Assembly: GCA_028286705.1 (NCBI GenBank)
Contig: JAQBRC010000006.1
Coordinates: 1-46,328, forward strand
Reading direction: 5' to 3'
Length of the DNA: 46,328 nucleotides
Source: Candidatus Nomurabacteria bacterium
Lineage (GTDB): Bacteria; Patescibacteriota; Minisyncoccia; Phycocordibacterales; UBA9973
Every line of letters begins with the position of its first letter. Within the stretch, counting starts at the first letter, position 1. Of the stretch, positions 9,594 to 38,385 are shown one piece after another. The position numbers were made by a program, and so were the translations under genes. Below the pieces are notes generated by a model. The model had not been told where the DNA came from. It did not search any database and saw only the letters and a program-made list of their open reading frames with translations.

Positions 9594-9602
9594 TCCCCTA
9601 TT

Positions 9603-10405: not shown

Positions 10406-10409
10406 ATTG

Positions 10410-10903: not shown

Positions 10904-10906
10904 TTG

Positions 10907-11631: not shown

Positions 11632-11699
11632 GCAAGTATAAGTATACTACCGTGGTTTATTTTTTACAAAACCCTATCAAAGTGATACAGTACTGTTAC

Positions 11700-11772
11700 G
11701 CACCTGTAGCTCAATGGATAGAGCACTTGTCTTCGGAACAAGGGGTTGTGGGTTCGACTCCTGCCAGGTGCA
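11700..11772 (+). tRNA. tRNA-Arg (anticodon UCG)
   Basis: GCACCTGTAGCTCAATGGATAGAGCACTTGTCTTCGGAACAAGGGGTTGTGGGTTCGACTCCTGCCAGGTGCA forms a cloverleaf with anticodon loop CTTCGGA. The 3' flank is CAA, so no CCA is encoded. Confidence 0.9.
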
Positions 11773-11788
11773 CAACAATCATATTCTC

Positions 11789-22741: not shown

Positions 22742-22773
22742 GTTGAACAGAACTGGCAATGTATACTAGAGAT

Positions 22774-23148
22774 ATGAAAAGACATATGATCATCTCTTTT
22801 ATAATGATAGCGATATTTATTGCTATTCCATTGATTACAAATGCGTCGACACTAACATCAGTATTACTCACCAAGTCTTTCGGGGGAAGAGTGATAGCAA
22901 CAAGCCTTCCAATTGTTACCTGTATCGGTACAGGAACAGGTCCTATAACTCTTACAAAAATAAATGAACTGTCCTTATATACAACCGACATTACCAAAAG
23001 ACCAAAAGTTGGAGACTATATCTTGGGAAGAGTAAATATCATTCCGAACTTTAGTACCTGTACAATATATGACATTCCATACCCTGTACGAACCACAAAC
23101 GGCAGTAATTACAGAATTTCTACACCTAATACGGGTCTAGGCTATTAA
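22774..23148 (+). CDS. Small secreted/anchored protein, first gene of the T4SS-like locus (unknown function)
   Basis: From the ATG at 22774 the product starts MKRHMIISFIMIAIFIAIPLITNAS (signal-like). A TATACT box (22762-22767) lies 6 nt upstream. The track start at 22759 would place that box inside the coding sequence. Confidence 0.6.
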   Translation: MKRHMIISFIMIAIFIAIPLITNASTLTSVLLTKSFGGRVIATSLPIVTCIGTGTGPITLTKINELSLYTTDITKRPKVGDYILGRVNIIPNFSTCTIYDIPYPVRTTNGSNYRISTPNTGLGY

Positions 23149-23159
23149 ATTTCACCCAT

Positions 23160-24050
23160 ATGCCTCCATCATCTGTTCCAAGCAAACAATTCCTGATTCG
23201 CGGAGGAATCGCCCTCGGTATAGTGGCGGTTATTTTGGTTGCGCAGACTAACTGGTTTCATAACATCTTTCACAAAACAAAGAAAACAGACACCGTTGCT
23301 GACAACACTACTATTACAGACATAACTTCTAAGGATACAAACGGCAACGGTATTGCAGACTGGGAAGAAAAGCTCTGGGGACTTGATCCTGCGGTGTTGT
23401 ACACCGATGGGAAGCCTAATGCTGAAATCATTAAGGAAAAGAAGCTTGCTTTGGGGATAAGCACTGCAACAAGTTCAGCCAATGAGACTGATGCTATTGC
23501 CCAGAAACTCTTTACTATCACCACAGCACTTAGTCAGAATGACAATATTGATGATTCAACACTACAGGATGTTGCCAATCAGCTTGGATCGTCTGTAAAC
23601 GTTGCGTCTATTAGCAACAAGTATTCTCTGAAGAATATTACGACTGTTCGAACTTCTACTGCCTCATTAACTGCGTACTATAATTCATTTCAAAAGATCA
23701 TGGGCAAGTATAACTTGAGTCAAAACGATACAGCAATCATCGTACAGGCTACCGAGACAGGGGATTATAGTCAGCTTCCACAGCTCGATGCGACAAAAGA
23801 CACTTATGCGGCATTGGCAAAGGAGCTAAGTACCATCAAGGTTCCTGTTGGCGTTGCTCAATACCATCTTGATATCATCAACAGCTTTGCCGGAACAGCA
23901 GCATCATTTTCATACCTACAGCAAATGGCAGACAACGGTACTCAAGCAATTGTCGGTATTGCTCTCTACAAGATATACACAACTCGTGGACAAACTGCAC
24001 TGTATGATCTTAACGACTATTTAACAAAATACGGTATACTTAACGTGTAA
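23160..24050 (+). CDS. Membrane-anchored protein with a Ca-binding-like DxNGNGIxDxEE motif (unknown function)
   Basis: 296 aa with an N-terminal TM helix (GGIALGIVAVILVAQ). The motif DTNGNGIADWEEKLWGLDP resembles thrombospondin type-3 or dockerin-like loops. Confidence 0.65.
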   Translation: MPPSSVPSKQFLIRGGIALGIVAVILVAQTNWFHNIFHKTKKTDTVADNTTITDITSKDTNGNGIADWEEKLWGLDPAVLYTDGKPNAEIIKEKKLALGISTATSSANETDAIAQKLFTITTALSQNDNIDDSTLQDVANQLGSSVNVASISNKYSLKNITTVRTSTASLTAYYNSFQKIMGKYNLSQNDTAIIVQATETGDYSQLPQLDATKDTYAALAKELSTIKVPVGVAQYHLDIINSFAGTAASFSYLQQMADNGTQAIVGIALYKIYTTRGQTALYDLNDYLTKYGILNV

Positions 24051-24051
24051 C

Positions 24052-26238
24052 ATGTCACACTGGAAAAAAATACTTACATTCTTTCTCTCTGCTGCTACAG
24101 TAGCTTCTTTGCTGGCTACTCCTGCACTCGCAGCTCCTATCACCAGCTCTCCAACAACAGGTCCTTGTAAGGGATTAATTGGTAGCACGCTTAGTAGATG
24201 TCAGGCTGCTCAAGCATCTAGCACTACAGTTCAGAAATTTAATCCCAACGTTAATGTAGGGTCAGGCAATAGCTATTCAGGAGCATCCATTAGTGGTGTC
24301 GGCGGAGCAATTGCCAGCTGTACTAACGTGGGATCATTTTTGACAAATACTGCAAGCAGCCTGCTTTCAGCAACGGTATTCGGAAAGGCTGCCAAACCAG
24401 CTTCTTCATTTAACGGAAATGGTGACGCTGTAAAGGTTTCAGACGAAGTAGCTCAAAAAAAACTTGCCAGTATAGACAAAACCAGTCAGTGTCTTGATGG
24501 TATTGCATATGCAGTTGCAAAGAATACCTTGGCTCAGGTGACAAACAAAACGTTGAATTGGGTAAATACAGGGCTTAATGGCAACCCTCTCTATGTACAG
24601 AATGTAGACTCATACCTAAAAACAGTTGCAAACCAACAAATCAGAGCGTACCTGCAAACCGCACAAGGATCTGATCCAATATTTGGAAATGCATTGAAGT
24701 CAACAATCTTCAGAAGTATTACAGGACAATCAGATGGCTTGCTGAACGTATCTCCTAATACTCCAGAGGCACACGCATACAACTCATTCCTTGGTGACTT
24801 CACCAGTGGGGGATGGAGTTCATTGCTTAATCCTGCAAACAACCCTATCGGCGCCTTGTTTACAGCAAACGACAATCTTGCGGGAAAAATAAGTAGCTCT
24901 ACCGAAAGCTCAAAAGCTGAAATTCAGCGTAACAACGGTTTCTTGGACATGAAGCACTGTGTAGAGACAGCGCCAGTAGATACCTCGACCACAGCAAAAG
25001 CTATCAGCAACGGTCTTTCTCAAAATCCAACCTGTTTGCAGTGGGTAACTGATACACCGGGATCAATCATTGCCAGTCAGGTACAGACAATCACCAATTC
25101 TCCAGTTCGTCAGCTTGAATACGCAAACAAGATTAATGAAGTATTAGGAGGATTCTTTGATAGTTTCGTTAACAGCCTGCTATCAAAAGGATTGCGGGGT
25201 AGCGGTATGAATGGCGGTATTGATTTTGGCTTTAGTTCTCAAGGAGACAATATTATTCTTGATTCAAGCGGCAATGCGCTTAATCTTAACGGTGCAAATC
25301 TTGGATACCAAAGTACAACGGGAGGCAACGCGCTCGATCAAAGCTTTGATATCTCTCGACCACAGCAGTTCCGAGCAGTGCTACAAGCACAGGTTAACTA
25401 TGTTAACAGAGCAAAAGATGCTCAGATTGCCCTTAATCGAGTCGTTCCTACGGTTGGCGCTTTGGACTATTGTATTCCTGGACCGAACCCAACATGGGCA
25501 GGAAATTCTGCAAGCAATTTAAATAATTTTGTTAGTTCTCTGCAGCAGGCGGATCCTAAAAACCCTAGCCTTGTACAAAAAATTCTCGGAGCACTTCCTG
25601 TTATCGGAGGGCTATTGAGCCTGTTCTCAAGCAGTGCTCCTCCACAAGTCTGGTCAACAGACGGGCTTCTTGGAGATCCCGCTACAGGATTAACTGTGCA
25701 GGTACCTCGAGTATTTCAGAACAAGGGTACTGATTTTTCTGGAGGCACAGGACAACTGGTCAAGGGCCTTACTGGTGCATACAATGTAATCGCAACTCAA
25801 TACCACTTCTATGACAACAATACAGAAGTTGCAAAAGCGTTCACTGATGCAGCAAAAAATGATACTGATGGATCATACGTGGGAGTCTTTCTAAGAGAGG
25901 AGTACAACGAAACATCAAGTTTGTTGAGTTATAACCAAGCTTCTAGTCAGATTGATACGCAGTATGATAACAATATCGGGCAAACTGAATCAAGCATTGA
26001 CCAAATGAAGATTATCCAAAAGCAGGTTAATGCTATCGTTGCCACAGCCAAGGCTGACTATATTAAGAAGCGTGCAGCGGCAGGAAATCCAGTTGATATG
26101 GCATGTATAAATAGTGCATACCAAATCGACAGCTCACCTATTGTCGGCGTTGCTCGCCAAGAAAGTGATAAGCCAGATGCAATCGTGCAGCATTCTGCTG
26201 ATTCAGCAAGTTATTTCTATAACGATGTAATCAATTAG
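24052..26238 (+). CDS. Large secreted protein (728 aa, unknown function)
   Basis: Signal peptide (MSHWKKILTFFLSAATVASLLATPALAAP) and several spaced Cys residues. No recognisable catalytic motif. The start codon follows the previous stop after 1 nt. Confidence 0.7.
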   Translation: MSHWKKILTFFLSAATVASLLATPALAAPITSSPTTGPCKGLIGSTLSRCQAAQASSTTVQKFNPNVNVGSGNSYSGASISGVGGAIASCTNVGSFLTNTASSLLSATVFGKAAKPASSFNGNGDAVKVSDEVAQKKLASIDKTSQCLDGIAYAVAKNTLAQVTNKTLNWVNTGLNGNPLYVQNVDSYLKTVANQQIRAYLQTAQGSDPIFGNALKSTIFRSITGQSDGLLNVSPNTPEAHAYNSFLGDFTSGGWSSLLNPANNPIGALFTANDNLAGKISSSTESSKAEIQRNNGFLDMKHCVETAPVDTSTTAKAISNGLSQNPTCLQWVTDTPGSIIASQVQTITNSPVRQLEYANKINEVLGGFFDSFVNSLLSKGLRGSGMNGGIDFGFSSQGDNIILDSSGNALNLNGANLGYQSTTGGNALDQSFDISRPQQFRAVLQAQVNYVNRAKDAQIALNRVVPTVGALDYCIPGPNPTWAGNSASNLNNFVSSLQQADPKNPSLVQKILGALPVIGGLLSLFSSSAPPQVWSTDGLLGDPATGLTVQVPRVFQNKGTDFSGGTGQLVKGLTGAYNVIATQYHFYDNNTEVAKAFTDAAKNDTDGSYVGVFLREEYNETSSLLSYNQASSQIDTQYDNNIGQTESSIDQMKIIQKQVNAIVATAKADYIKKRAAAGNPVDMACINSAYQIDSSPIVGVARQESDKPDAIVQHSADSASYFYNDVIN

Positions 26239-26244
26239 CCCCAT

Positions 26245-27267
26245 ATGAACAAAATTTTAAAAATCATCCTCATACTCATCGGCGCATTCTTCCTTATCCT
26301 AGGAATCATATGGCTTATCGGGCGCAACAGCGCGTTAAAAAACGGCAAAGAACCTTTGACGTTCAGACAATTTCTGGGGTTGAGTACTAAGAAAGCTCCT
26401 GTGGAAACAGTACCGGGAGAAGGATCATCTTCATTTAATGGCGGTGGGACAACAACTGGGGGAAGCACTAATGGCGGAGACGGCACTGCGGGGACTGGTA
26501 CGAATGGCGGTGGTTCAAACGCTGGAGCAGGGGGTATTAGTGTTGATGGCAACGGCAACGTTGCTGTTAGCCAGTTTACCAATGGAGCAACAGGCTTAGG
26601 TACAAACGGTATCGGGGGAAGTGGTATAAGTAACGGTACTGGAACATCTGGGGGGCTCAATAGCGCAGGAAATCCTAATGCATCAACTGGAACAATAGGG
26701 AATGGCAATTCAATCAATATTTCAGGAATTGGCAATTCAAGTAGTACTAGTCAGCCGGTATGTAGCGATGAAGACCTTAATATCGACTTTACTCCCGCAC
26801 AGCTTGCTCAGCTTAATATCCTGCAAAGCCGCTTCTATGCACTTGCACAGACATTGCATAGTGACGCGGATGTAGAGACAGAGGTAGCAAACCACGATGC
26901 CTTTACCCTTAAAGCAGATAGCGTACTTGAACTATATAGCTATTGCGAGTCAAAGCTACCTTATATAAATGCAGCAGCTGATAGCAGACTGAGAGTACAT
27001 GTAGCCACTCCATTCTGGACAGCATATGACTCAAACCCTGCAGTACCAAGCTATGTTAATGCAAAAACAGGCCTAAACTTTCTTACGGCATCAGATCCTG
27101 CCAAGGCAGGATTCTCAATCCTTACCTACGCACAAGGCAACAAAACTAAGTACGGATTGCTTGACCTTACACAGCGTCAATTCATTGAAGTCAACGGATC
27201 TGCATTGCAAGACTGGCCAATTCTAACTCCTGCAGTTGAAAACATTTTACGCATTAATTTGTGGTAA
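26245..27267 (+). CDS. Membrane-anchored protein with a Gly/Asn/Thr/Ser-rich low-complexity stalk and a C-terminal globular domain
   Basis: N-terminal TM helix (ILILIGAFFLILGIIWLIG), then about 110 aa of GGTTTGGSTNGG/GTNGIGGSGISNGTG-type repeats, then about 170 aa of ordinary sequence. Confidence 0.65.
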   Translation: MNKILKIILILIGAFFLILGIIWLIGRNSALKNGKEPLTFRQFLGLSTKKAPVETVPGEGSSSFNGGGTTTGGSTNGGDGTAGTGTNGGGSNAGAGGISVDGNGNVAVSQFTNGATGLGTNGIGGSGISNGTGTSGGLNSAGNPNASTGTIGNGNSINISGIGNSSSTSQPVCSDEDLNIDFTPAQLAQLNILQSRFYALAQTLHSDADVETEVANHDAFTLKADSVLELYSYCESKLPYINAAADSRLRVHVATPFWTAYDSNPAVPSYVNAKTGLNFLTASDPAKAGFSILTYAQGNKTKYGLLDLTQRQFIEVNGSALQDWPILTPAVENILRINLW

Positions 27268-27297
27268 AAAAGTAGCGCTCCGTGATACAATGTACGA

Positions 27298-30200
27298 GTG
27301 TCCGCACGTCTATTTCGTCGCATTAAATCATCTTTTTCTCGTTTGAACAAAACATTCTTTTTCTCTGTAGCATTGGGGTTGGTTGTTGTGTTTTTTTCTG
27401 TTAGTCACGTGCTTGCTGACGCTGCCACAGACTACAGGTATTATCTAAAAAATTTTACTACTTCTAATGATGGCAAGTTAACTAGTGGGATTGGTGGCGG
27501 AACAGTAGCCGCAGCAAGTAAAAATGGTACAGGGGGTGATGGGCTAGTCTTCGTGGCCAATCTTGGAGTTGATACTTCTTCTCCTCATATTAACGCTAGC
27601 GTAAATGAGCCAGACAGTATTGCTCTGCACTGGGGTAGAGTAGCTCACATCAACGAAGCCTTTGTTATAAAAGTATGTCAGAATGGTACGACTCAGTGTT
27701 ATCTTAATACGGTCGCATACACCAATAATAGAGCAGACCCTGGGGTCCAAGCATTTTCTGAAACAGATACAGACGGCAACATTGCCGACAAGCAAGCTCT
27801 TCCTGTTGTTGCTTTCACAAAAACAGATCCAAGAAATACCGGTAACATATACGGATACGATGCGACAAATAAAACTGTCAGTACTAGCAACGGTATAACA
27901 TTTGGAAACGGCAGTTCACTTACGGCGACATTTTGGTACTGTGCCGTGAAAGGAACGGGGGATCCAGCCCCTCAGGACTATCTAAAAGCCAATCCTTCGG
28001 CAACTGACGCAGCAGTATTTGGAAATCTTTGTGGAGGCAGTACGTATTTTCAGATTGGAGGCCCTCTTTCAATAACAATTCCCTTAAATGCAAATGCAAT
28101 AAATCAGCAGGTGACACAATCTAGCCAGACTGTTGCAGCTGGATCAAGCGCAAGCTCATCAGACAACAGCAATATTCCAACTTGTGGAGTTACCAGTGGT
28201 ACAAAACTGTATGGCTGTGTGGCTTATCTCGCATATGGTATCTATGTTCTAGTTGCATGGGTTGCCGGTATCTTGGGCAGCCTCTTTGATTTCTTCTTGG
28301 GATATTCTGTTAGCGATGCCTCATATCGATATGGTTTTGCTGTTAACGGCTGGAAGCTGGTGCGTGATATCTCAAATATCTTTTTTATAATTATTATGGT
28401 GTGGACAGGTTTTTCTGCTGTCTTTGATACCAGCAAGAGCGGATCAATGCGTAAGATTGTTCCTGCACTTATCATCAACGCACTGCTCATCAACTTCAGT
28501 CTTTTTGCAACGAGGGTGGTCATTGATATTTCTAATATCACCGCACGTATGTTCTATAGTCAGATGGTGGTATGTGACAAGGTAAATATCGATACCAATA
28601 CTGGGAAGTGTGATCCGCTACAGGCAAGGCGAGGACCGGGGGGGTATTGGCCTTTGTCAGAAAAGATCATTTCTTCATTCAATCCTCAACAGCTGTTTAA
28701 GACTGCAACATTGCAACCTACGACAGCTCCTAGCAATACTTCTACAACCAATAGTTCTCAGCCCGGATTCTTGCCTGGCGCAACAGCAGGGACAGCAGGG
28801 ACTAGCGAGGTAGACTATGTGAACTATTTTATGGTGGTATGTATTGTTGCGGCAATCATTATGGGCTTTGCCGGAGTTATCTTTTTCAAGGTGGCATTCT
28901 TGTTCATTGCCCGAGTTGTCGGCCTGTATATTTGTATGATCTTCTCTCCGTTTGCTTTCCTTAGTCGTGATATTCCGATGCTCGGAAAGATTAAGCAACT
29001 GAGATGGGAAGACTGGCTTGGTGACCTTACTAATTATGCCTTGATGGCTCCAGTGTTTACATTTTTCCTCTACGTTATCTTCACTGTTATCTCTAGCGAC
29101 TTTGCTCAGCAGATAGGATACATGGATAGCAGCGGTACCTTTATGGGCACAGTACTATCCATTGTTATTCCTATGGCACTTATATACTTCCTTCTTGATG
29201 CAGCGAAAAGTGCTGCTACTAAGCTTTCAGGAAGTGTCGGACAAAAAATACAAGGGTTCGGAGAACAGATAACAGGCATGGCAGCTGGTACAGCCCTGGG
29301 CTTAGCAACTGGTGGTGCTGGTTTCTTGGGAAGAAATGTAGTGGGGCGTGCAGCAAAGAGTTTCGGGGAAGGGAAGACTGGCAGACAAATTGAGATAGAC
29401 GGCAAGATGGTAGATGAAACACGGGCAATGAGTATTGCATCACGATCAGCAACAAGTTGGTCTGCGAGACAAAAGAACAAGCTCTTGCGCGCAACACAGG
29501 TAGGAAGTTTCAATGTTGGGAATGCCGGCGTGAATATTGGAGGAAAGGACTACAAGCTTAATGATACTATCGGAAGAAGTCTTGGTCTTATGGGCGTAAA
29601 AACAAATAATCTGCTAAAAAATGCAGACTATGTTGGAGATGACGCAGGCAAAGGCGGGATTGTAGCCGTTGATAAAAAGCGTACTGAGGAACGCCAGAAA
29701 GAACTTGAGAATCGTATTCAATTCGATCATCTTAGCGATGACGAAGCTAAGGCAACATGGGAAGCACATAAAAGAAATGCTGCGCTAAAGAACGCAGAAG
29801 GTAACTGGAAGAACAATGATAATATCGATAAGGAAGATGGTGTAAAAGAAACAGCTGAATTACTAAAGACAGCAACTGAAAAAGAAGTGGCCTTGAGTAA
29901 AGAAAATGCTGATCTCGAACAGAAACTAGCTACCGCAACAGCTGCTGGAAGCACTGCGGAAATAGCTGCTCTGACTGCATCAAAAACAGCAAAGGAGAAA
30001 GAGGTCAGCGACAATCAGACCCGGAAGAATGCACTTACAACTACAATTGAAACCGAGCGTAAAAATAAAATCACAGAGCTTGAAAAAGGCAAGTACATGG
30101 AATCAGAAGCGTACAAAGCGGCAGAAAAAACTGAAAGGGAACGCCTTGATAAATTTGGAAAAATCAAAAATGGCAAAATGCTCACCGCTGCAATGCGCTC

Positions 30201-30831
30201 AGAATATGGTGAAGATTTGCGTAAGAATTCATTCTGGCTTAAGGACGGTAAGCCTCGATATGATCAAGCAGCTCTTGTTGCAGAAGGCGGTGTAATTGGT
30301 GGCGCAGCTGGTGCCGCAGCAATGGCGAGTCTGCTACCAGGAATTACTATTGCTATAGGCACAATGTTAGGGGTGAGCGGAGGAGTTATCGACAACAGAT
30401 TTGGTGATATCAACAGCAAGGCAACAAAGGCTATGGTTGATTCGTTTAAGAAGACACAAGGAAAGGGGAACAAGGAAACAAGGTTGGCTGGAGAAATTGA
30501 TGCAATCAATGATCAGATCAAGCAGGCAGCAGAAGCGCATGGCACGGTTCCTAGTGGCGGGGTAGACAGCTGGTCGGAAGAAGATGTAGAAACAGCAATC
30601 GCAGGACATACATATATCCTTCAACAAGAAAAAGAAGCTCTACACAGAGAAGCATCCGCTAGGGGCGTATCGGAGGAAGTTAAGAGAGCAAAAACTATCG
30701 AGGCACAATTGAAACAGAAGAAGATTGATAAGTTGAATAAGGCTATGGAAGAAAAGCGCAGAATTCAAAATGAGCTAGACAAGATAAAAACTGCAGCAGA
30801 TAATGCAAAGAAGGATGAACCTAAAAAATAA
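27298..30831 (+). CDS. Giant polytopic membrane protein, VirB6/TrbL-like by architecture and context (1177 aa)
   Basis: GTG start. About 290 aa of extracytoplasmic N-domain, at least 7 central TM helices (for example LYGCVAYLAYGIYVLVAWVAGILG, IFFIIIMVWTGFSAVF, VVCIVAAIIMGFAGVIFFKVAFLFIARVVGLYICMIF), then about 500 aa of K/E/A-rich coiled-coil tail. Positioned upstream of the PrgI-like and VirB4 genes, as in Gram-positive T4SS loci. Confidence 0.6.
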   Translation: MSARLFRRIKSSFSRLNKTFFFSVALGLVVVFFSVSHVLADAATDYRYYLKNFTTSNDGKLTSGIGGGTVAAASKNGTGGDGLVFVANLGVDTSSPHINASVNEPDSIALHWGRVAHINEAFVIKVCQNGTTQCYLNTVAYTNNRADPGVQAFSETDTDGNIADKQALPVVAFTKTDPRNTGNIYGYDATNKTVSTSNGITFGNGSSLTATFWYCAVKGTGDPAPQDYLKANPSATDAAVFGNLCGGSTYFQIGGPLSITIPLNANAINQQVTQSSQTVAAGSSASSSDNSNIPTCGVTSGTKLYGCVAYLAYGIYVLVAWVAGILGSLFDFFLGYSVSDASYRYGFAVNGWKLVRDISNIFFIIIMVWTGFSAVFDTSKSGSMRKIVPALIINALLINFSLFATRVVIDISNITARMFYSQMVVCDKVNIDTNTGKCDPLQARRGPGGYWPLSEKIISSFNPQQLFKTATLQPTTAPSNTSTTNSSQPGFLPGATAGTAGTSEVDYVNYFMVVCIVAAIIMGFAGVIFFKVAFLFIARVVGLYICMIFSPFAFLSRDIPMLGKIKQLRWEDWLGDLTNYALMAPVFTFFLYVIFTVISSDFAQQIGYMDSSGTFMGTVLSIVIPMALIYFLLDAAKSAATKLSGSVGQKIQGFGEQITGMAAGTALGLATGGAGFLGRNVVGRAAKSFGEGKTGRQIEIDGKMVDETRAMSIASRSATSWSARQKNKLLRATQVGSFNVGNAGVNIGGKDYKLNDTIGRSLGLMGVKTNNLLKNADYVGDDAGKGGIVAVDKKRTEERQKELENRIQFDHLSDDEAKATWEAHKRNAALKNAEGNWKNNDNIDKEDGVKETAELLKTATEKEVALSKENADLEQKLATATAAGSTAEIAALTASKTAKEKEVSDNQTRKNALTTTIETERKNKITELEKGKYMESEAYKAAEKTERERLDKFGKIKNGKMLTAAMRSEYGEDLRKNSFWLKDGKPRYDQAALVAEGGVIGGAAGAAAMASLLPGITIAIGTMLGVSGGVIDNRFGDINSKATKAMVDSFKKTQGKGNKETRLAGEIDAINDQIKQAAEAHGTVPSGGVDSWSEEDVETAIAGHTYILQQEKEALHREASARGVSEEVKRAKTIEAQLKQKKIDKLNKAMEEKRRIQNELDKIKTAADNAKKDEPKK

Positions 30832-30833
30832 CT

Positions 30834-31439
30834 ATGGAATCAACACCTAAAACAACAGAAGAATTATGGGCAGAAGATGGGCTGAAGAACGTACCGAGTG
30901 AAGTAGTAGACTTTATGACAAGTCCTTTGTATGAAGTAATCATTAGTGCTGCTCAGCAGGCTCTTTCTCTGACTGCAGAACAAAAGAATTGGATGAGGCT
31001 GCTCTCATATGAATTACTTATGACCACCATAACTGAGAAGGGGGCCTACCAATTCTTGATTGACCATAGTGTGTCAGCAGAAACTGCTATTAAAATACTC
31101 TATGTAATTGACACCGAAATCCTCACGCGTGCAGAAAATATTACAGAATTCTTTACTGACGATTCTGAGGTAACAGATGAAGAGGTTGCTAGCTATGCAG
31201 CACCAAAGCCAGTTAACTTCGCACCGACAAGTCTGCAATCTCTGGCAGACCGACTCAAACAACCTTCATTTTCTGCTAACACATCTCACAGTTATATTCC
31301 TGCACAGGGAACAGTACCAGCAAATCTTCCTGTTACCGAACTGATTCTCACTCCAGATACAGCAGCGGATGCGCCAGTTGCTCCGGCATCAAATCCTATA
31401 AAAACTATCGACCCGTATCACGAACCAATAGAAAAATAA
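30834..31439 (+). CDS. Acidic cytoplasmic protein (201 aa, unknown function) within the T4SS-like locus
   Basis: No TM helix or signal peptide. Its ATG is 2 nt after the VirB6-like stop, within an 18-nt junction sequence that recurs at 31872-31889. Confidence 0.6.
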   Translation: MESTPKTTEELWAEDGLKNVPSEVVDFMTSPLYEVIISAAQQALSLTAEQKNWMRLLSYELLMTTITEKGAYQFLIDHSVSAETAIKILYVIDTEILTRAENITEFFTDDSEVTDEEVASYAAPKPVNFAPTSLQSLADRLKQPSFSANTSHSYIPAQGTVPANLPVTELILTPDTAADAPVAPASNPIKTIDPYHEPIEK

Positions 31440-31463
31440 TATCTGCTATACTTGTAGCAGCAT

Positions 31464-31883
31464 ATGCAGTTCAAGGTCCCACAATTTATTGATATTGAAG
31501 ACAAAGTCTTTGGACCGCTTACCTTCAAACAGTTCGCATACCTTGCAGGGGGAGCGGGCCTTGGCTATTTGGCGTTTCGTTTCTTGCCGACAATTATTGC
31601 GATTGTTGTGGGGCCATTGCTGGTAGCGTTCGCATTAGCGTTGGCATTTATGAAATACAACGACAAGCCGTTTGTTAACGTAGTTGAATCATTTATTCGA
31701 TACTATTCACATTCTCGACTATACCTTTGGCACAAGCAGCCATCTGGAAATGTTACAACCGCTCGTCCTCGAGACGATATGCCTCAGCTCATCGCCCATA
31801 CAGGACAAGGCCGTGATACAATGAACGAGAGTAAGCTGAAGACACTTTCATGGAGTGTTGATGTCATTGACCCTAAAAAATAA
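31464..31883 (+). CDS. PrgI-family (VirB3-like) small membrane protein
   Basis: The N-terminus MQFKVPQFIDIEDKVFGPLTFKQFAYLAGGAGLGYLAF followed by two TM helices matches the remembered PrgI-family pattern. It sits immediately upstream of VirB4, as expected for this family. Confidence 0.7.
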   Translation: MQFKVPQFIDIEDKVFGPLTFKQFAYLAGGAGLGYLAFRFLPTIIAIVVGPLLVAFALALAFMKYNDKPFVNVVESFIRYYSHSRLYLWHKQPSGNVTTARPRDDMPQLIAHTGQGRDTMNESKLKTLSWSVDVIDPKK

Positions 31884-31885
31884 CT

Positions 31886-32521
31886 ATGGCCACTATCGGA
31901 ACACCCGCCCAACAATTTATTCCCGTCCAGGACGTTCGTGACGGCATTGTCGTATTGAAAGACGGCACCCTTTGCACCATTGTATTGGTTTCTTCCGTCA
32001 ACCTTAGCCTAAAGTCATACGACGAACAGCGCGCAACACTGTCTCAGTTCCAGAACTTTTTAAATACTCTTGATTTTCCAGTACAGATTGTCGTTCAGTC
32101 TCGTAAATATGATGTTCGTCCTTATATTTTAACGCTAGAAAACCGTCTGAAAGAGCAGACAGAGCAGCTGTTGCAGGTACAGACTCGCGAATATATCCAG
32201 TTTATCCAAACTTTTACCGACCAAGTGAACGTTATGCGCAAGTCTTTTTTTGTAGTTATTCCGTATGTTCCAGCAGTATTGAAACAAAGTTCTGGCATTG
32301 GAAAATTCTTTTCGTTCCTACGAAGTACTCCTAAGTCTGATTCTGGAGTTATCAGCGACTTTGAGGAAGAGCGTACGCAGCTTGAGCAACGCGTTAGCGT
32401 TGTTGAACAGGGACTATCAAGCGTTGGTCTTCGACTGGTGCAGCTTGGTACGCAGGAGGTGATTGAAGTGCTGTATAAGACCTTCAACCCTGGAGAAACC
32501 ACCAGCCAATCTAACGCCTAG
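31886..32521 (+). CDS. VirB4 N-terminal segment encoded as a separate 211-aa ORF
   Basis: QQFIPVQDVRDGIVVLKDGTLCTIVLVSSVNLSLKSYDEQRATLSQFQNFLNTLDFPVQIVVQS resembles the extreme N-terminus of Gram-positive VirB4-type ATPases (Tn916 Orf16/TcpF/PrgJ class), which are normally about 800-aa single polypeptides. Confidence 0.6.
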   Translation: MATIGTPAQQFIPVQDVRDGIVVLKDGTLCTIVLVSSVNLSLKSYDEQRATLSQFQNFLNTLDFPVQIVVQSRKYDVRPYILTLENRLKEQTEQLLQVQTREYIQFIQTFTDQVNVMRKSFFVVIPYVPAVLKQSSGIGKFFSFLRSTPKSDSGVISDFEEERTQLEQRVSVVEQGLSSVGLRLVQLGTQEVIEVLYKTFNPGETTSQSNA

Positions 32522-32546
32522 CGATAAACTGAGGTATACTGTATCC

Positions 32547-34334
32547 ATGAAAGACAACGGAGGGCTTCTACCAATCTCCTCATCACAAGTTCACGAATGG
32601 GAAACAATGGAACTAGCAGACAAGATTGCTCCTTCTGCTATTGAAATCACTTCCAAGTCCATGCGTATCGGCGATAAGATCGTTCGTACCTTCTTTGTTA
32701 TTTCTTATCCTCGATACCTTACCGACAATTGGCTGACTCCAATTATCAATCTTGATAAGATTTTTGATATTGCCATCTATGTTAACCCTATTGAAACAGC
32801 AGAATTGCTGAAGCATTTCCAGAAGAAGATTGCCGAAGTGGAGAGTCAGATCATCGTTCGCCAGCAAAAGGGATTAGTTCGCGACCCAATGCTTGATACT
32901 GCGAGAGAAGACTTGGAAGAGCTTCGTGACAACCTGACACAGGCACAGGAAAAGATGTTTGACCTTGGCATGTACATCACCATCTACGCTGACAACGAAA
33001 CAGACTTGTTCCGCACTGAAAGTGAAATCAAGTCACTGCTTGAGTCAAAGCTTATTTATATGAAGCCAACGCTCTTTCAAGAAGAGGATGGGTTCAAGAC
33101 TGTTGCCCCACTTGGTACAGACAAACTCAATGTCACACAAAAGCTTAACTCTGAGCCTATTTCTAGTATGTTTCCATTCGTTTCATTCGACCTTACAAGC
33201 GAAACAGGAATCTTGTACGGTGTTAACCGACACAACTCTAGTCTTGTTATCTTTGATCGTTTCAGTCTTGAAAACTATAACTCTATTATCTTTGCCAAGT
33301 CTGGTGCCGGAAAGAGTTACGCGACAAAGTTGGAAATCATTCGTACGTTGATGTTTGATACAGACGTTATCGTTATTGACCCTGAACGAGAATACGAATA
33401 TCTCGCAGAAGCTATTGGCGGACGTTATTTTAATATTTCATTGTCTTCAGAACACCACATTAATCCGTTTGACCTTCCTATTCCTCGTGAAGACGAGTCA
33501 GCAGCAGATGTGTTGCGCAGCAACATCATCAACCTTGTTGGGTTGTTCCGTATCATGCTTGGAGGGTTAAGTCCTGAGGAAGACTCAATCATTGACCGTG
33601 CCATTACAGAAACCTATTCTCTTAAAGACATTAGTGCCGAGTCAGACTTTAGCAGCATTGAACCACCATTGCTGTCAGACTTTGAAATGGTATTGTCAGG
33701 GATGGAGGGAACTGACTCTGTCTTGCAGCGTCTCACTAAATATACCCATGGCTCATGGTCTAACTTTATCAACCAGCCAACAAACGTTGATATCAACAAG
33801 AAGTTCGTTGTCTTTTCAGTGCGAGACATGGAAGACGACCTTAAGCCTGCTGCTATGTATATAGTGACGCACTTTATTTGGAATGCTGTCCGCAAGGAAC
33901 TGAAGAAGCGCCTATTGGTTGTTGACGAGGCATGGTGGATGATGAAGTCAGAAGACACAGCAAGCTTCCTATACTCCATCGCAAAGCGAGGACGTAAGTA
34001 TTATTTGGGCCTTTGTACCATTACTCAAGACGTTGGGGACTTCATGAAGAGCCCATATGGTGTGCCAATTATCACCAACTCTTCTATCCAGCTATTGCTG
34101 AAGCAATCTCCATCAACTATGGATGTCTTGCAAAAGACCTTTAACCTGACTGACGAGGAGAAGTATCTATTGTTGGAGTCTGGGGTAGGGGAAGGAATCT
34201 TCTTTGCCGGACTGAAGCATGTGGCTATCAAGATCATCGCTTCCTATACAGAAGACCAAATCATCACCTCTGACCCTTCACAGGTTATTTCTATCAAGAA
34301 AGCCAAACAGGAATTCTCCGAACAGAGAGCGTAA
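32547..34334 (+). CDS. virB4: VirB4-type T4SS ATPase (C-terminal 595 aa including the P-loop domain)
   Basis: Walker A is FAKSGAGKSYATK and Walker B is LLVVDEAWWMM. The upstream VirB4 middle region is KIAPSAIEI...RTFFVISYPRYLTDNWL. The ATG at 32547 is chosen over the track's 32463, which overlaps the previous ORF in another frame. Confidence 0.85.
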   Translation: MKDNGGLLPISSSQVHEWETMELADKIAPSAIEITSKSMRIGDKIVRTFFVISYPRYLTDNWLTPIINLDKIFDIAIYVNPIETAELLKHFQKKIAEVESQIIVRQQKGLVRDPMLDTAREDLEELRDNLTQAQEKMFDLGMYITIYADNETDLFRTESEIKSLLESKLIYMKPTLFQEEDGFKTVAPLGTDKLNVTQKLNSEPISSMFPFVSFDLTSETGILYGVNRHNSSLVIFDRFSLENYNSIIFAKSGAGKSYATKLEIIRTLMFDTDVIVIDPEREYEYLAEAIGGRYFNISLSSEHHINPFDLPIPREDESAADVLRSNIINLVGLFRIMLGGLSPEEDSIIDRAITETYSLKDISAESDFSSIEPPLLSDFEMVLSGMEGTDSVLQRLTKYTHGSWSNFINQPTNVDINKKFVVFSVRDMEDDLKPAAMYIVTHFIWNAVRKELKKRLLVVDEAWWMMKSEDTASFLYSIAKRGRKYYLGLCTITQDVGDFMKSPYGVPIITNSSIQLLLKQSPSTMDVLQKTFNLTDEEKYLLLESGVGEGIFFAGLKHVAIKIIASYTEDQIITSDPSQVISIKKAKQEFSEQRA

Positions 34335-34361
34335 AGCACTGCTGTTTGCTATACTTATAGC

Positions 34362-35327
34362 GTGAAATCTATCTTAAAAAGAATCAGTGTCATAACTATT
34401 GCAGCAATACTTTCAATTGTTGTGTTTAGTATGGTACATGCGCAGTCTGCTTCTGTTGATCTCTCTATCACGAGCAGTCCTATAAACCCCGCTCCGGGGG
34501 AGAAGGTAACACTTACACTGCAGAGCTTTAGTGCCGACCTCAGTCAAGCCAATATTGTTTGGGACTATAACGGCAAAAACATTGCCTCAGGAAAAGGAAG
34601 GACGACTATTTCAGTTATTGCTCCGGGTAGCGGGATATCAGGTTCCATTACTGCCAGCGCAACAGGAGGATTTAATGCGGCTAGTGCGACACTGATATTG
34701 CGGCCTGCCAGCGTTGATCTGCTCTTTGAAGGAGCAGACAGTTATACTGCTCCCTTTTATAAAGGCTTAGCGCTACCCTCAACAGGAGGAATTGTTCGCG
34801 TTACAGCAATTCCATCAATTACAGCACCAAAAGGATTGAGCTTTAACTGGAAAAGAAACGGTGAGGCGCAACAGACTGCTTCAGGCTACGGCAAATCAAC
34901 ACTATTGTTCAAGCACGACGAGCTAACCCCGACAGAAACCATTGATGTTACAGAAAACAATGGCGGTTTTAGCGGGGCTGGCAGTATCAGTGTTACTCCA
35001 GGAAAACCTATCATTGCAGGATATTTCAACAATGACGGCTATGTGGATTATGCTAACGGATCAACGGGTATCCTTAGTACAACTGGTACCGGTGCATTGA
35101 TACACTTCGAACCCTATTTTATTTCTTCTCCGAACAGCCTGGCTCGTGACTTAACATTTTCATACACTGATGACAGCGGCAATGCGCTTAATCCTTCTAG
35201 GATAAAGAACGAACTAGGATTATCTCGCCCTGACAATGGGGGAGGGTCTGATTTCAGCACCGCAGTAAGTACTGTAGTATTCACCCTTCAGAACATCACC
35301 AAACGATTCACAGTCAATTTCAATTAG
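34362..35327 (+). CDS. Secreted protein, probably beta-sandwich/Ig-like (unknown function)
   Basis: GTG start and a signal peptide (MKSILKRISVITIAAILSIVVFSMVHAQS). The beta-rich composition lacks Cys or catalytic motifs. Confidence 0.6.
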   Translation: MKSILKRISVITIAAILSIVVFSMVHAQSASVDLSITSSPINPAPGEKVTLTLQSFSADLSQANIVWDYNGKNIASGKGRTTISVIAPGSGISGSITASATGGFNAASATLILRPASVDLLFEGADSYTAPFYKGLALPSTGGIVRVTAIPSITAPKGLSFNWKRNGEAQQTASGYGKSTLLFKHDELTPTETIDVTENNGGFSGAGSISVTPGKPIIAGYFNNDGYVDYANGSTGILSTTGTGALIHFEPYFISSPNSLARDLTFSYTDDSGNALNPSRIKNELGLSRPDNGGGSDFSTAVSTVVFTLQNITKRFTVNFN

Positions 35328-35348
35328 GATTCGTGATAAACTAAAGGT

Positions 35349-37085
35349 ATGAAAAAAATACTGTGGCTAACATTTATCTTTACGCTGTTGTTCGTCAGCC
35401 ACAGTTTTGCTGACTACAACCTTACAGCTAAGCCAACCGGTACAACTATTAATGCCACCCTTGTAGGGGGCTTGAATAACTATCAATACCAATTAGTTGT
35501 CCAAACAACTCCCTTTGATTCAACAACTACCTATAGCGGGAAGAAACCAGGAGCGCAGGCATATATAAGTGATCCAATAACATTCAAGAGGGTAGTTGCA
35601 ACCCCACCCCTCACAACCGGAACTGCAACATGGTCAATTATCGGCAACAAAGCCAATACTCTTTACTACATACGGGTATTGGAAATTCCTTCTACTTCTG
35701 CTCCTGCAAAATATGTAACCGAACAGGCTTCCGTTACTACAGGGGCGGTCACTATTTCTTTTGACACACTCAAGACAGAAAAGGTGGCAGATGGGGAAGT
35801 TATTGTTAAGGGAAAAATTACAGATCAACCGTTTAACCCTAGCCAATACAAGGCTATATTGTATTTCACTAAAGAAGTACCCCGGAATGGCGCAACAACA
35901 ATAACAAGCAATACTGGCGCTATTCAAAGCAGCAAGACAGCTGCTCTTGGTGGACCAGAAGGCATCAACGATGATGGCACGTACTATTGGCACCTTTCTG
36001 GCCTGAGTCCAAGTACTACATACTACATCCAGCAGACAATTTCTGCGGGTGTTAATTCAAAGGTTGGATCAATTGACCACTTCGACAGCAGTACAGGAAA
36101 TATTGTTGCATCTGCAACGGATCAAGTTTCATACGACAAAGAGCACAGCTATACGCTGCTGTCTCCATTTCCTAACTTCAGTGTTCTTCCTGATCCTGAC
36201 CTTTGTGCCCAAAAGATAGCGGCAAATGGCGGGGTACGGCCTGCCAATCTTCCTTTCTGTGACATGAACGATGTTATTAACTATTTTCTTAAATTGCTAA
36301 TTGGTCTATCTGCGGTCGTGCTGGTATTCCGTCTAATGTATGAGGGATACGTATACATGACCAGCGATATGCCGTTTAAGCTAGCCAGCTCAAAAGGATC
36401 ATTCTTTGCGGCGCTCGGTGGACTGCTACTAGCACTTACTTCATACATTATTTTAAATACGATTAATCCGAAGTTAGTAAATAACAATATTGGCATAACT
36501 CAACTAGCTATTGGTATTGATGGCGATGCCAACATTCCAACTATCTTTATTCCAACAGGACAAATGCCTAAGGATATATACTGTCCGGGAAGCGGAAAAA
36601 GTGCAGCAATTGCCAAGATTGCTCAAAGCTACAAAGGAAAGGTTACATACAGTCAGACGAATAAAAGTGCGGCTGCACAGTCTGATGGATATGCTCGTCT
36701 CGACTGTTCTAGTTTTGTAAACACAGTATTGAACTGTGCTGGATATAAGGCAGGAACTGATTTCATTAATGAAGGTACTTCATCCATTTTTGGCAATTCA
36801 GAAAAACTCAGCATGTCGACAGACTTTGTTATTAATGGTGGTTCTGTCTCTGTTAAGGGAAAAGTGTTAAATCCTGGAGATTTAGTTGGGTGGCCACCTG
36901 CAGGAGGCGCTGGTCACGTGTTGATATATGTTGGAAACGCAACCTTTATGGATTCTCATGGGGGAGCGGCGGGAAGACAGCCAGGAAACGCCATTGGTGT
37001 CTATACAGCTACTCAGATCAAAACCTTATACGGAGGAAGCGCCGCTTCAAAGACAATAAATTCTATAAAGAGAATACCTGTATAG
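35349..37085 (+). CDS. Fusion protein: signal peptide, two FN3-like domains, T4SS-pilin-like (TrbC/VirB2-like) TM hairpin and a C-terminal NlpC/P60 cell-wall hydrolase
   Basis: FN3-like strings are KANTLYYIRVLE and LSGLSPSTTYYIQQT. The two-helix hairpin is VINYFLKLLIGLSAVVLVFRLMYEGYVYMTSD...FFAALGGLLLALTSYIILNTINPKL. NlpC/P60 catalytic residues are in RLDCSSFVNTVL (Cys), AGHVLIYVG (His) and MDSHG. Confidence 0.75.
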   Translation: MKKILWLTFIFTLLFVSHSFADYNLTAKPTGTTINATLVGGLNNYQYQLVVQTTPFDSTTTYSGKKPGAQAYISDPITFKRVVATPPLTTGTATWSIIGNKANTLYYIRVLEIPSTSAPAKYVTEQASVTTGAVTISFDTLKTEKVADGEVIVKGKITDQPFNPSQYKAILYFTKEVPRNGATTITSNTGAIQSSKTAALGGPEGINDDGTYYWHLSGLSPSTTYYIQQTISAGVNSKVGSIDHFDSSTGNIVASATDQVSYDKEHSYTLLSPFPNFSVLPDPDLCAQKIAANGGVRPANLPFCDMNDVINYFLKLLIGLSAVVLVFRLMYEGYVYMTSDMPFKLASSKGSFFAALGGLLLALTSYIILNTINPKLVNNNIGITQLAIGIDGDANIPTIFIPTGQMPKDIYCPGSGKSAAIAKIAQSYKGKVTYSQTNKSAAAQSDGYARLDCSSFVNTVLNCAGYKAGTDFINEGTSSIFGNSEKLSMSTDFVINGGSVSVKGKVLNPGDLVGWPPAGGAGHVLIYVGNATFMDSHGGAAGRQPGNAIGVYTATQIKTLYGGSAASKTINSIKRIPV

Positions 37086-37097
37086 TACAATACTGAT

Positions 37098-38345
37098 ATG
37101 CGAAAGATTCTCATTATTACTTTGATTTCACTAGTACTCATTATCGGGGGAGTGTATTTCTTCTATTTCAGACCACGAGTGTTGAGTGGTCAACCTGTAC
37201 CAAATGTCCTCACATCATTTTTCCCGAAAGTAACTAGTTCCGGCAATTCTTTTGGAGCTGACGATACAGCAGTTAATCCTGACGGAACACCTGTAACTGC
37301 TACAGCATCTAAGCTTAAGCAGCTTACACCGCGCCCTATAGCGGGCTACACGGCCTTTGATATCTCAACTGCAGTATCTATACCTTCAATTGACCCTAAG
37401 GTAAAACCAACCGTAACAACAAAGACTGACTATTATGTTCGGTATGTTGGAAGAACGAATGGATATGTATATGAAATAAAGAACAACGAGATTCCGTTGC
37501 AGATCAGTAATATCCTTATACCCAATGTCTACGAAGCCTTCTTTGCAGACAGCAACAATACTGCGCTGTTGCGATTCCTTCGTCCGGATGGTCAAACGAT
37601 AGCAACATACAGTGTTCCTGTCCCTCCATTAAATCCAGACAATACACGAACACAGTTGTCTGGCGTATACCTTCCGGACAATATCTTTTCACTCGCTGTT
37701 TCTCCTGACCAGAAACAGATTGCTCGTATCACCGCTGATGACACAGGTACAACACTCAGTGCTTCAACAGCTGCGGGGAAGAACATTAAGGCGCTATACA
37801 AGTCTCCTTTTAATTCATGGATACCTCAATGGAATGCTTCTGGTATCTATCTTCAGACAAAGGCAGCAGCTAGTGCCAACGGATATGTGTATGCAGTTGA
37901 CCAGACTGCCGCACGCTTGAGAAGAATAGTTGGAAACGTGAATGGATTAACAACATCTGTTAGTCCATCAGGTGCATATGTGTTGTATTCTGAAAGTGCT
38001 AATTCATCCTTTGTTACCAAGGTATTTAATACCAAACTGGGTACAACAACAACGCTTAGCCTGAAGATACTGCCTGAAAAATGTACTTGGCTACAAAACG
38101 AAGATTTAATTTGTGCGGGAAATAACAGTGTTGATAACGGGGCGTATCCTGATGCATGGTATGCAGGTACAACACACTTTGTTGATGAGCTATACCGCAT
38201 AACTCCTAATACCAATACATACAGTGTTGTATTTAATGACGGTGCAAGATCATTTGATATGACTAACCTGCAGGTTGATGAAAGCCAGCAATATCTGTAC
38301 TTTGTTGATAAGAACACTGGCATACTCTGGAAATATTCATACTAA
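37098..38345 (+). CDS. Membrane-anchored protein with TolB/PD40-like beta-propeller repeats (last gene of the locus)
   Basis: N-terminal TM helix (ILIITLISLVLIIGGVYFFYF). Repeated strings resemble PD40 blades (LAVSPDQKQIARI, SVSPSGAYVLYSE, LRFLRPDGQTIATY). Confidence 0.6.
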   Translation: MRKILIITLISLVLIIGGVYFFYFRPRVLSGQPVPNVLTSFFPKVTSSGNSFGADDTAVNPDGTPVTATASKLKQLTPRPIAGYTAFDISTAVSIPSIDPKVKPTVTTKTDYYVRYVGRTNGYVYEIKNNEIPLQISNILIPNVYEAFFADSNNTALLRFLRPDGQTIATYSVPVPPLNPDNTRTQLSGVYLPDNIFSLAVSPDQKQIARITADDTGTTLSASTAAGKNIKALYKSPFNSWIPQWNASGIYLQTKAAASANGYVYAVDQTAARLRRIVGNVNGLTTSVSPSGAYVLYSESANSSFVTKVFNTKLGTTTTLSLKILPEKCTWLQNEDLICAGNNSVDNGAYPDAWYAGTTHFVDELYRITPNTNTYSVVFNDGARSFDMTNLQVDESQQYLYFVDKNTGILWKYSY

Positions 38346-38346
38346 T

Positions 38347-38377
38347 AAAAAGACCGAGACATAGTCTCGGTCTTTTT
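38347..38377. terminator. Strong bidirectional terminator closing the T4SS-like locus and yidC
   Basis: Hairpin aaaaagaccgagac/ata/gtctcggtcttttt between convergent genes. Confidence 0.85.
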
Positions 38378-38385
38378 ATTAGTAT

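Follow-up and report, generated by a model that had tools for sequence, protein, structure and literature searches.

A probable chromosomally fixed type IV secretion system beside dnaA in Nomurabacteria, with a pilin module fused to a cell-wall hydrolase

The window, which is the whole stretch analyzed here, comprises 46,328 nucleotides (nt) from a Candidatus Nomurabacteria bacterium (assembly GCA_028286705.1, contig JAQBRC010000006.1, positions 1 to 46,328); it contains a co-directional block of genes on the + strand, from 22759 to 38345, that is considered likely to encode a type IV secretion system (T4SS) of the class that is fixed in Patescibacteria chromosomes. The listing of open reading frames (ORFs) gives twelve genes in this block, designated g01 to g12 (Table 1), and not the fourteen counted in the original prediction, an earlier reading of the same DNA; the genes are separated by gaps of 1-30 nt, therefore there is no space for two extra genes. 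As to the shared direction, the short gaps and a start just after rsmA, the listing agrees with that prediction. All ORFs of the locus are intact and tightly spaced. Outside the genes with a recognizable T4SS counterpart there are seven others, six whose products carry a signal peptide or transmembrane (TM) anchor and one encoding an acidic, TM-free protein, where eight plus one had been reported. A scan of species-representative genomes returned 584 candidate stretches encoding VirB4 relatives, and the best 80 loci were kept; counts out of 80 refer to this set.

The VirB4 ATPase g09 matches the NCBIfam family conju_CD1110 over profile positions 153-733 (E of 5e-116, 388.8 bits against a cutoff of 325) and the Pfam family P-loop_TraG (7.4e-26), and displays Walker A (GAGKS, residues 253-257) and Walker B (VVDE, residues 458-461) motifs; a database protein labeled 'VirB4 component-like, Ca. 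Nomurabacteria' is 100% identical to it, and the organism names on its homologs, where listed, are Nomurabacteria, Paceibacterota, Minisyncoccia or Patescibacteria group. The product of the preceding gene, g08, matches the NCBIfam families VirB4_plasma (positions 107-284, 7.2e-12) and CD1110 (positions 1-114), as well as TrsD/TraD at 5.8e-7, which is below the family cutoff. The two had been predicted to be one VirB4 split over two ORFs; the ATPase stands, but the split proves to be a boundary between two conserved, non-overlapping genes. A frameshifted VirB4 is ruled out by the g08-g09 junction, where a stop codon is followed by a 25-nt spacer and an ATG at 32547, by the lengths of the best 120 g09 homologs, all 587-631 amino acids (aa), and by the separate ORF that g08 forms before virB4 in 79 of the 80 loci, with all three relative frames represented. 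Judged by sequence, the pair constitutes a conserved two-gene TrsD + VirB4 arrangement; such an arrangement is described for Patescibacteria in the accessible text of PMC12102498. The PrgI/VirB3-like protein foreseen at the position of g07 is confirmed by Pfam (PrgI, PF12666; E of 2.6e-11, 44.3 bits against a cutoff of 27) and is found in 74 of the 80 loci.

The polytopic protein g05 begins with a signal or TM segment and an extracellular N-terminal domain (residues ~40-300), followed by a conserved TM core of about six helices (~296-650, window 28183-29247) and a C-terminal extension of ~530 aa that is hydrophilic and resembles a coiled coil; this extension, including a hydrophobic segment at 1002-1027, is limited to the closest relatives (1136-1305 aa), and more distant orthologs measure 630-1030 aa. 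No Pfam match is found for g05 itself, and its match to the NCBIfam CD3337/EF1877 mobilome membrane protein (6.6e-5) reaches 21.9 bits against a cutoff of 120. Its orthologs match families from mycoplasma integrative and conjugative elements (ICEs), namely MMCAP2_0566 (9/46) and Mbov_0396 (3/46), at sub-threshold level, and Pfam TrbL/VirB6 is matched by 6 of 32 relatives (best 5.8e-5). Structure models made with AlphaFold2 (AF2) cover the g05 core and g03; the core model has a predicted local distance difference test score (pLDDT) of 76, and its top Foldseek matches in the PDB are R388 TrwI/VirB6 (E 0.12, probability 0.95), with template-modeling scores (TM-scores) of 0.30-0.40 that are not significant. 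g05 is probably VirB6-like, with moderate confidence and at the level of the family; the earlier description of a VirB6-like giant holds to that extent, through TrbL in 6/32 relatives and TrwI as top fold match, the protein itself being sub-threshold.

The gene g11 sits two genes after virB4 within the T4SS operon, and its product is composed of a signal peptide, a variable N-terminal extension, a VirB2-type pilin module (residues ~263-382, window 36135-36494) with TM segments at 309-327 and 351-369, and an NlpC/P60 peptidoglycan endopeptidase domain (~425-540, window 36621-36968). The latter matches PF00877 with 29.2 bits against a cutoff of 23 and contains the catalytic motifs DCSSF (452-456, with Cys452) and GHV (522-524, with His523); of the g11 orthologs, 40/46 match T4SS_pilin (PF18895) and 14/46 match TrbC/VirB2 (PF04956) in Pfam. 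The original prediction of a pilin-like TM hairpin fused to an NlpC/P60 hydrolase is borne out by these matches. In a search of the window for further pilin genes a pilin-core hidden Markov model (HMM) finds g11 alone; across the relatives, the model detects a single protein in each of 71 loci out of 80, and two paralogs in four.

Proteins occupying the pilin slot span 140-733 aa; in some lineages the same position holds a free-standing pilin of ~140-220 aa, and the longer forms (400-730 aa) feature immunoglobulin (Ig)/TIG-like N-terminal extensions together with a C-terminal wall hydrolase. The hydrolase type also varies among g11 orthologs, being NlpC/P60 in 13, VanY in 8, Peptidase_M15_4 in 3, SLT types in ~7, YkuD in 2 and Amidase_2 in 1. 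The slot is modular, with hydrolase domains that are interchangeable between Paceibacteria orthologs, and the fusion of a pilin to a wall hydrolase suggests that the site of pilin assembly delivers the hydrolase or holds it in place. The accessible text of PMC12102498, which gives VirB2-like and VirB1-like proteins separately, makes no mention of a pilin-hydrolase fusion, nor does the single other paper that cites PF18895.

In the window the locus is preceded by uvrD (19986-21935) and rsmA/ksgA (21953-22741), and is followed by yidC, yidD and rnpA on the - strand, then by dnaA, dnaN and a gene for a class A penicillin-binding protein (PBP1). A synteny search across relatives, proposed along with the original prediction and carried out by tblastn, ORF mapping and iterative HMM, defines a conserved core that occupies the same slot in the 80 loci, in the shared order uvrD, rsmA, g02, g03, (g04), g05-g12, yidC, yidD, (rnpA), dnaA, dnaN, PBP1, with yidC, yidD, rnpA and PBP1 on the - strand. 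VirB4 is 74-93% identical to g09 across these loci, all of which come from Nomurabacteria/Paceibacteria-type metagenome-assembled genomes. The rsmA-yidC slot and the gene order are constant in every fetched locus with enough flank; the same slot in related genomes argues for vertical inheritance and against an ICE, and the locus is considered to be vertically inherited at one fixed chromosomal site next to dnaA. Relative to the window, identity has a median of 78% for VirB4, 56% for TrsD, 43% for PrgI and 26-32% for the exported proteins, compared with 56% for DnaA, 49% for DnaN, 43% for YidC and 50% for RsmA among the neighbors; VirB4 surpasses DnaA in conservation in each of the 53 loci having both. 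This pattern of selection fits a core machine with host-facing parts. The lineage is Nomurabacteria/Paceibacteria, so the earlier framing in terms of Saccharibacteria or the candidate phyla radiation (CPR) and an epibiont-host pair needs to be adjusted; an affiliation with Saccharibacteria is rejected since both the 100%-identical protein and the closest loci are Nomurabacteria/Paceibacteria. As a separate observation, many records named 'uncultured Candidatus Saccharibacteria bacterium' (L002-L004, L010, L013, L017, others) carry a VirB4 that is 75-92% identical and show full synteny with Nomurabacteria/Paceibacteria loci; the taxonomy assigned to these third-party assemblies seems doubtful.

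At its 3' end the locus is bordered by a palindromic hairpin between the convergent g12 and yidC, whose stop codons lie at 38343-38345 and at 38386, respectively; the hairpin is likely a bidirectional terminator that closes the operon. A strong terminator had been predicted at 38347, and it is recovered as this 20-bp-stem palindrome with the placement given in Table 1. The GC content of the locus is 0.433, and that of the flanks is 0.424 and 0.420. Pfam scans of the locus and of the flank ORFs of at least 100 aa in the 46-kb window, with frame-overlapping ORFs left out, found no relaxase, coupling protein or VirB11, in agreement with the predicted lack of a relaxase, a VirD4-type coupling protein and VirB11. 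Elsewhere in the left flank, a cell-wall hydrolase with two LysM domains and a Peptidase_M23 domain is encoded at 18582-19766 (-), 3 kb upstream and on the strand opposite to the locus; VirB1-like matches include M23/LysM domains according to the accessible text of PMC12102498. Three further left-flank ORFs, at 9614-10459 (-), 10963-11631 (-) and 17040-17984 (+), encode proteins of 222-314 aa with no Pfam family at E <= 0.001.

Table 1. Genes of the T4SS locus and the hairpin at its 3' end (positions in the window)
Feature	Position	Strand	Length (aa)	Description
g01	22759-23148	+	129	N-terminal signal/TM; variable accessory
g02	23160-24050	+	296	N-terminal anchor, TSP3-like motif; conserved accessory
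g03	24052-26238	+	728	Secreted, cysteine-containing, long helices; conserved accessory
g04	26245-27267	+	340	N-terminal TM helix, Gly-rich linker, C-terminal domain; variable accessory
g05	27298-30831	+	1177	Polytopic protein, probably 'extended VirB6-like'
g06	30834-31439	+	201	Acidic, TM-free; C-terminal DPY[RH]E motif; conserved
g07	31464-31883	+	139	PrgI/VirB3-like small membrane protein
g08	31886-32521	+	211	TrsD-like; VirB4 N-terminal domain as its own gene
g09	32547-34334	+	595	VirB4 ATPase, CD1110 / monoderm MPF-FATA type
g10	34362-35327	+	321	Exported, apparent Ig-like repeats; conserved accessory
g11	35349-37085	+	578	T4SS pilin module fused to NlpC/P60
g12	37098-38345	+	415	N-terminal anchor, probable TolB/PD40-like beta-propeller; conserved accessory
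Hairpin	38339-38385	.		Palindrome, 20-bp stem, between convergent g12 and yidC (terminator scan)

Among the remaining proteins of the locus, g02, g03, g06, g10 and g12 are conserved and g01 and g04 variable; g02, g03, g10 and g12 are detected by BLAST in most loci covering their positions. g02 has one TM segment and a Ca-binding TSP3-like motif (DTNGNGIADWEE, residues 59-70), after which the protein is probably helical as judged by eye; the bacterial TSP3 repeat is present in 11 of 34 orthologs, and the Ca-binding motif is the sole match when the g02 profile is compared with the PDB. By BLAST g02 is found in 36 loci, many of the fetched loci ending before its position. The secreted g03 has a signal-peptide-like N-terminus and 212 homologs, which carry no functional family name apart from one stray 'spore coat protein CotF' label and show no Pfam domain among the matches listed; five cysteines (90, 147, 303, 474 and 685) are invariant among 77 closer homologs that were aligned. 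Its AF2 model consists of long helices and is of moderate confidence (pLDDT 68.6, predicted template-modeling score (pTM) 0.46); no significant match to the fold was found in the PDB or BFVD with Foldseek, which returned generic long-helix noise, nor by profile against PDB sequences.

The acidic g06 contains 30 Asp+Glu against 12 Lys+Arg and has no TM segment. By BLAST it is found in 4 loci and seems lineage-specific, whereas an iterative HMM unites 74 of 93 sequences, the set being g06 of the window and 92 ORFs from 63 loci that lie after the VirB6-like gene and before prgI; the family is defined by a ~110-aa domain, often duplicated in one protein or across two adjacent genes, and by the C-terminal DPY[RH]E motif, and its members are nearly all net-acidic and TM-free. 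Profile searches found no Pfam or PDB relative of g06. Directly after virB4, g10 is present in 76-78 of the 80 loci; it has a signal/TM segment at 8-26 and three Ig-like repeats apparent by eye, with weak Pfam Ig_3 matches and no PDB sequence match by profile search. g12, with one TM segment, is found in 66-68 of 80 loci; its profile matches TolB chains alone in the PDB (best E 0.0086), and its orthologs include some with a PD40 repeat (5/46) or an extra PG_binding_1 domain (4/46), so that it is probably a TolB/PD40-like beta-propeller. Of the two variable proteins, g01 has a hydrophobic segment at 9-27, no Pfam match, and relatives in ~9/80 loci by iterative HMM; g04 has one TM segment and a C-terminal domain present in 17/80 loci, with no match in Pfam, NCBIfam or the PDB.

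The locus was earlier placed beside yidC and oriC; the yidC/dnaA synteny is as described, but GC skew and a strand switch at ~11.7-12.7 kb may point to another place for the origin. The cumulative GC-skew minimum lies at ~12.2-12.7 kb within the window, gene orientation flips from - to + at 11632-11713, GC is lowest in the window (0.37-0.39) at 9-11 kb, and a perfect DnaA box at 10737 lies inside a 503-bp intergenic region near the skew minimum; by dnaA, a perfect box is located at 41436 in the dnaA-dnaN spacer and a 1-mismatch box at 39887. The origin may sit ~10 kb upstream of the T4SS locus (8573-12750) and not in the dnaA flanks; the locus is origin-proximal under either placement, the 46-kb window being too short to fix the exact origin. 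Enrichment of DnaA boxes was set aside as proof of an adjacent oriC, as 19 matches against 12.9 expected, with 2 of 100 shuffles reaching 19, is not decisive.

The locus is best explained as a Patescibacteria-specific, chromosomally fixed T4SS that arose from monoderm conjugation machinery of the mating-pair-formation FATA (MPF-FATA) type and is seen here in its Paceibacteria/Nomurabacteria form; this explanation, together with the following proposed mechanism and role, is held with good confidence. By analogy with R388, hexamers of VirB4/TrsD would dock on a membrane platform of VirB3 and the VirB6-like protein; the R388 structures 8rt9 and 7o3v are taken to be the basis for such docking. ATP-driven extraction of the pilin-module protein from the membrane would give rise to a filament or a short conduit, and the hydrolase domain borne by the pilin would open peptidoglycan, either the cell's own or that of the host. 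The exported, fast-evolving g02, g03, g10 and g12 are proposed to make up, or to be attached to, the section that spans the wall and contacts the host cell, and the acidic cytoplasmic g06 may be an adaptor or chaperone at the ATPase. The machine would serve to contact the host and to move macromolecules between epibiont and host, with direction and cargo left open, and not to export DNA by conjugation; the components, the fixed site and the lack of linked transfer genes support the original prediction of a dedicated secretion, uptake or cell-contact machine. Southlakia epibionticum cannot grow epibiotically without its homologous locus but can dispense with comEC (PMC10633639, PMC12857230), and proteins with T4SS-pilin domains are among the highest-expressed unknown genes of Paceibacterales with archaeal hosts (PMC10936435).

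A bolder extension of this explanation is speculative and considered improbable. It envisages a VirB2-type filament on a monoderm cell in which every subunit, or a subset at the tip or base, would carry its own hydrolase and Ig-like domain, with the type of hydrolase matched to the host wall; such a filament might act as a self-drilling feeding or contact tube, with g03 as the wall conduit. The hydrolase types swapped between lineages are NlpC/P60, VanY/M15, SLT, YkuD and amidase. In the known conjugative pili, including the F and T pilus, both pilin termini are located on the outer surface.

Several points weigh against the explanation of the locus as a host-contact T4SS. g11 itself is under Pfam reporting for the pilin families, yet it has the near-invariant residues of the family; its pilin module is flanked by ~240 and 200 aa of extra domains, which may make VirB2-like polymerization impossible, and the module may be a mere membrane anchor for the hydrolase. 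The VirB6 assignment of g05 leans on sub-threshold or family-level matches and on a Foldseek E of 0.12, and a VirB8-like (NTF2) component was not found by sequence or in profile searches of g02, g04 and g12 against the PDB. The high conservation of VirB4 indicates constraint and makes no statement on the job of the machine, the function of which is inferred. Furthermore, the window covers 46 kb of the genome, and other parts of it could encode a relaxase or coupling protein; the accessible text of PMC12102498 describes many VirD4 homologs in Patescibacteria, usually far from virB4.

One alternative is that the locus is a degenerate or domesticated ICE remnant, either non-functional or mobilizable by genes elsewhere. 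The closest annotated families of VirB4, TrsD, PrgI and the VirB6-like protein are from Firmicutes and Mycoplasma ICEs, an ancient horizontal origin from monoderm conjugative systems is inferred in the accessible text of PMC12102498, and a tyrosine recombinase is encoded 6.6 kb upstream (15211-16116, -). However, this recombinase (Phage_integrase + SAM_1) is of the Xer type, neighbors rpsO and has housekeeping genes between it and the locus; it is probably a housekeeping dimer-resolution enzyme, and the earlier statement that no integrase occurs in or next to the locus holds for the immediate flanks, with this gene to be added at a distance. ICE borders were not seen, rsmA and yidC bounding every fetched locus whose flanks are long enough (no explicit search for direct att repeats was made), and among the 80 the slot and order are the same wherever the flank suffices. 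VirB4 is constrained more than DnaA, the ORFs are intact with tight spacing, the GC content of the locus equals that of its flanks, and Pfam finds no relaxase or type IV coupling protein (T4CP) in the window. An ICE remnant is considered highly implausible and is, alone among the rivals, effectively excluded; the prediction that the locus is not a conjugative element, for which the same slot in related genomes and the GC content equal to the flanks speak, is upheld.

Two other functions come into consideration. The machine may be an importer of DNA or nucleotide polymers, similar to ComB or Ced, which would bring host or environmental DNA into a cell unable to make nucleotides; this is a rather unlikely alternative. 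ComB is an uptake system of VirB2/VirB3/VirB4/VirB6-type composition, and the presence of these components without a relaxase, T4CP or VirB11 mirrors such uptake systems. VirB4 also has weak NCBIfam matches to CedB (4.2e-9) and CedD, but at 35.6 bits against a cutoff of 700 and 20.4 against 600, respectively, it is not a Ced ortholog, and no DNA-binding or nuclease component is recognizable in the locus by Pfam or NCBIfam. In the accessible text of PMC12102498 the authors favor import of DNA or other macromolecules, whereas DNA uptake by S. epibionticum needs ComEC, which is dispensable, and the T4SS is essential (PMC10633639, PMC12857230); therefore the essential role is not ComEC-dependent transformation. 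Import is nonetheless compatible with the host-contact explanation, which leaves direction and cargo open. Alternatively, the machine could be a contact-dependent injector of effectors or toxins into the host, like the bacteria-killing X-T4SS of Xanthomonas or Streptococcus suis 89K, with substrates encoded elsewhere. Wang et al. (PMC10633639) propose protein export as one option, coupling and relaxase proteins being missing; a wall hydrolase with fast-evolving surface proteins fits an attack apparatus, and some Patescibacteria are lytic parasites (PMC11880426, abstract). Against this, the known effector-translocating T4SSs are mostly T4CP-dependent, with Ptl and Brucella VirB as exceptions, and no linked T4CP occurs here; moreover, neither toxin/immunity pairs nor recognizable effector domains are present in the locus or its conserved flanks, and an injector is judged unlikely.

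Patescibacteria represent much of the bacterial diversity that has not been cultivated, and theirs is the first T4SS with a demonstrated essential function in the growth of its owner (PMC10633639, PMC12857230); the window provides a clean and complete Paceibacteria example of it, and not a new kind of system. What it adds is a conserved set of ten genes, nine BLAST-detectable and the tenth (g06) recovered by iterative HMM, of which five have no assigned T4SS role. The ultra-conserved motor and the fast-evolving exported parts form a contrast that would be expected of exported parts which follow changes in the host. The conserved set, the pilin-hydrolase fusion and this contrast are leads that could guide structural and cryo-electron tomography (cryo-ET) work in the few cultivable Paceibacteria-host pairs. 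What remains of interest is the modularity of the pilin-hydrolase, the fold-orphan g03, the conserved g06 and the contrast in conservation.

Among known systems, Helicobacter ComB and archaeal Ced are VirB4-driven and, like the window locus, lack a relaxase or coupling protein; the CedB/CedD matches are far under cutoff, and the outer-membrane components of ComB are irrelevant to a monoderm. VirB2, VirB3, VirB4 and VirB6 constitute the inner-membrane set for pilus biogenesis in the R388/pKM101-type platform. The VirB2-VirB6-VirB4 platform of R388/pKM101 (8rt9, 7o3v) provides TrwI/VirB6, the top fold match of the g05 core; the window locus differs in having no VirB5 or outer-membrane core, a pilin with large extra domains, and a VirB6-like protein that is 3-4 times longer. 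The monoderm MPF-FATA systems (Tn916/CTn2 CD1110, pCF10 Prg, ICEBs1 Con, Mycoplasma ICE Mbov_0396/0397) give the best matches for VirB4, TrsD, PrgI and the polytopic protein, and place an NlpC/P60 hydrolase after virB4 (Tn916 Orf14, CD419) as in the window; in contrast, the window locus is fixed in the chromosome, is vertically inherited and is without a relaxase, an FtsK/VirD4-type coupling protein or an adjoining integrase. A VirB2-type pilin is absent from Gram-positive conjugative systems (PMC12857230) and is present in the window locus.

Closer still are the T4SSs described from Patescibacteria themselves. The T4SS of Southlakia epibionticum ML1 (SEML1_0006-0019, PMC10633639) shares a VirB4 after a small hypothetical gene, PrgI, a VirB6-like protein of ~1000 aa and PF18895 pilins, and in neither locus is a relaxase or coupling protein linked. 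In Saccharibacteria T4SSs the pilins are an array of six small proteins that stand free, the peptidase and lysozyme are likewise separate, and an NTF2-like (VirB8-like) protein is present, whereas the window locus, from another class, has a single NlpC/P60-fused pilin module and no detectable NTF2-like protein. The original prediction had referred to T4SS-like loci in Saccharibacteria/CPR; the class is real, and its novelty was overestimated, as it is already published in detail. Quinonero-Coronel et al. 2025 (PMC12102498) already give the system class and its descent from monoderm systems, along with TrsD, VirB2-like pilins, the lack of a relaxase and, for Paceibacteria, a location close to dnaA/dnaN/rnpA/ksgA, and the class is also described in Wang et al. 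2023 (PMC10633639); the kind of system, its dnaA-adjacent position and its lack of DNA-transfer genes are thus already known (2023-2025). Some features of the present locus are not described in the accessible text of PMC12102498, namely the pilin and hydrolase as a single polypeptide, the swapping of hydrolase domains, the proteins g02, g03, g06, g10 and g12, and a VirB4 conserved above DnaA. The Patescibacteria-clade T4SS, as given there, features VirB4 with adjacent TrsD, PrgI/VirB3, a VirB6-like protein, a PF18895 pilin and a CD419-type VirB1 hydrolase; it is chromosomal, is found close to dnaA, dnaN, rnpA and ksgA, and has no relaxase in its vicinity. The window locus shares these features apart from the VirB6-like protein, for which the matches of g05 are consistent but sub-threshold; that its VirB4 falls inside the monophyletic Patescibacteria clade is presumed, with indirect support from the 74-93% identity to VirB4 of the 80 Paceibacteria genomes.

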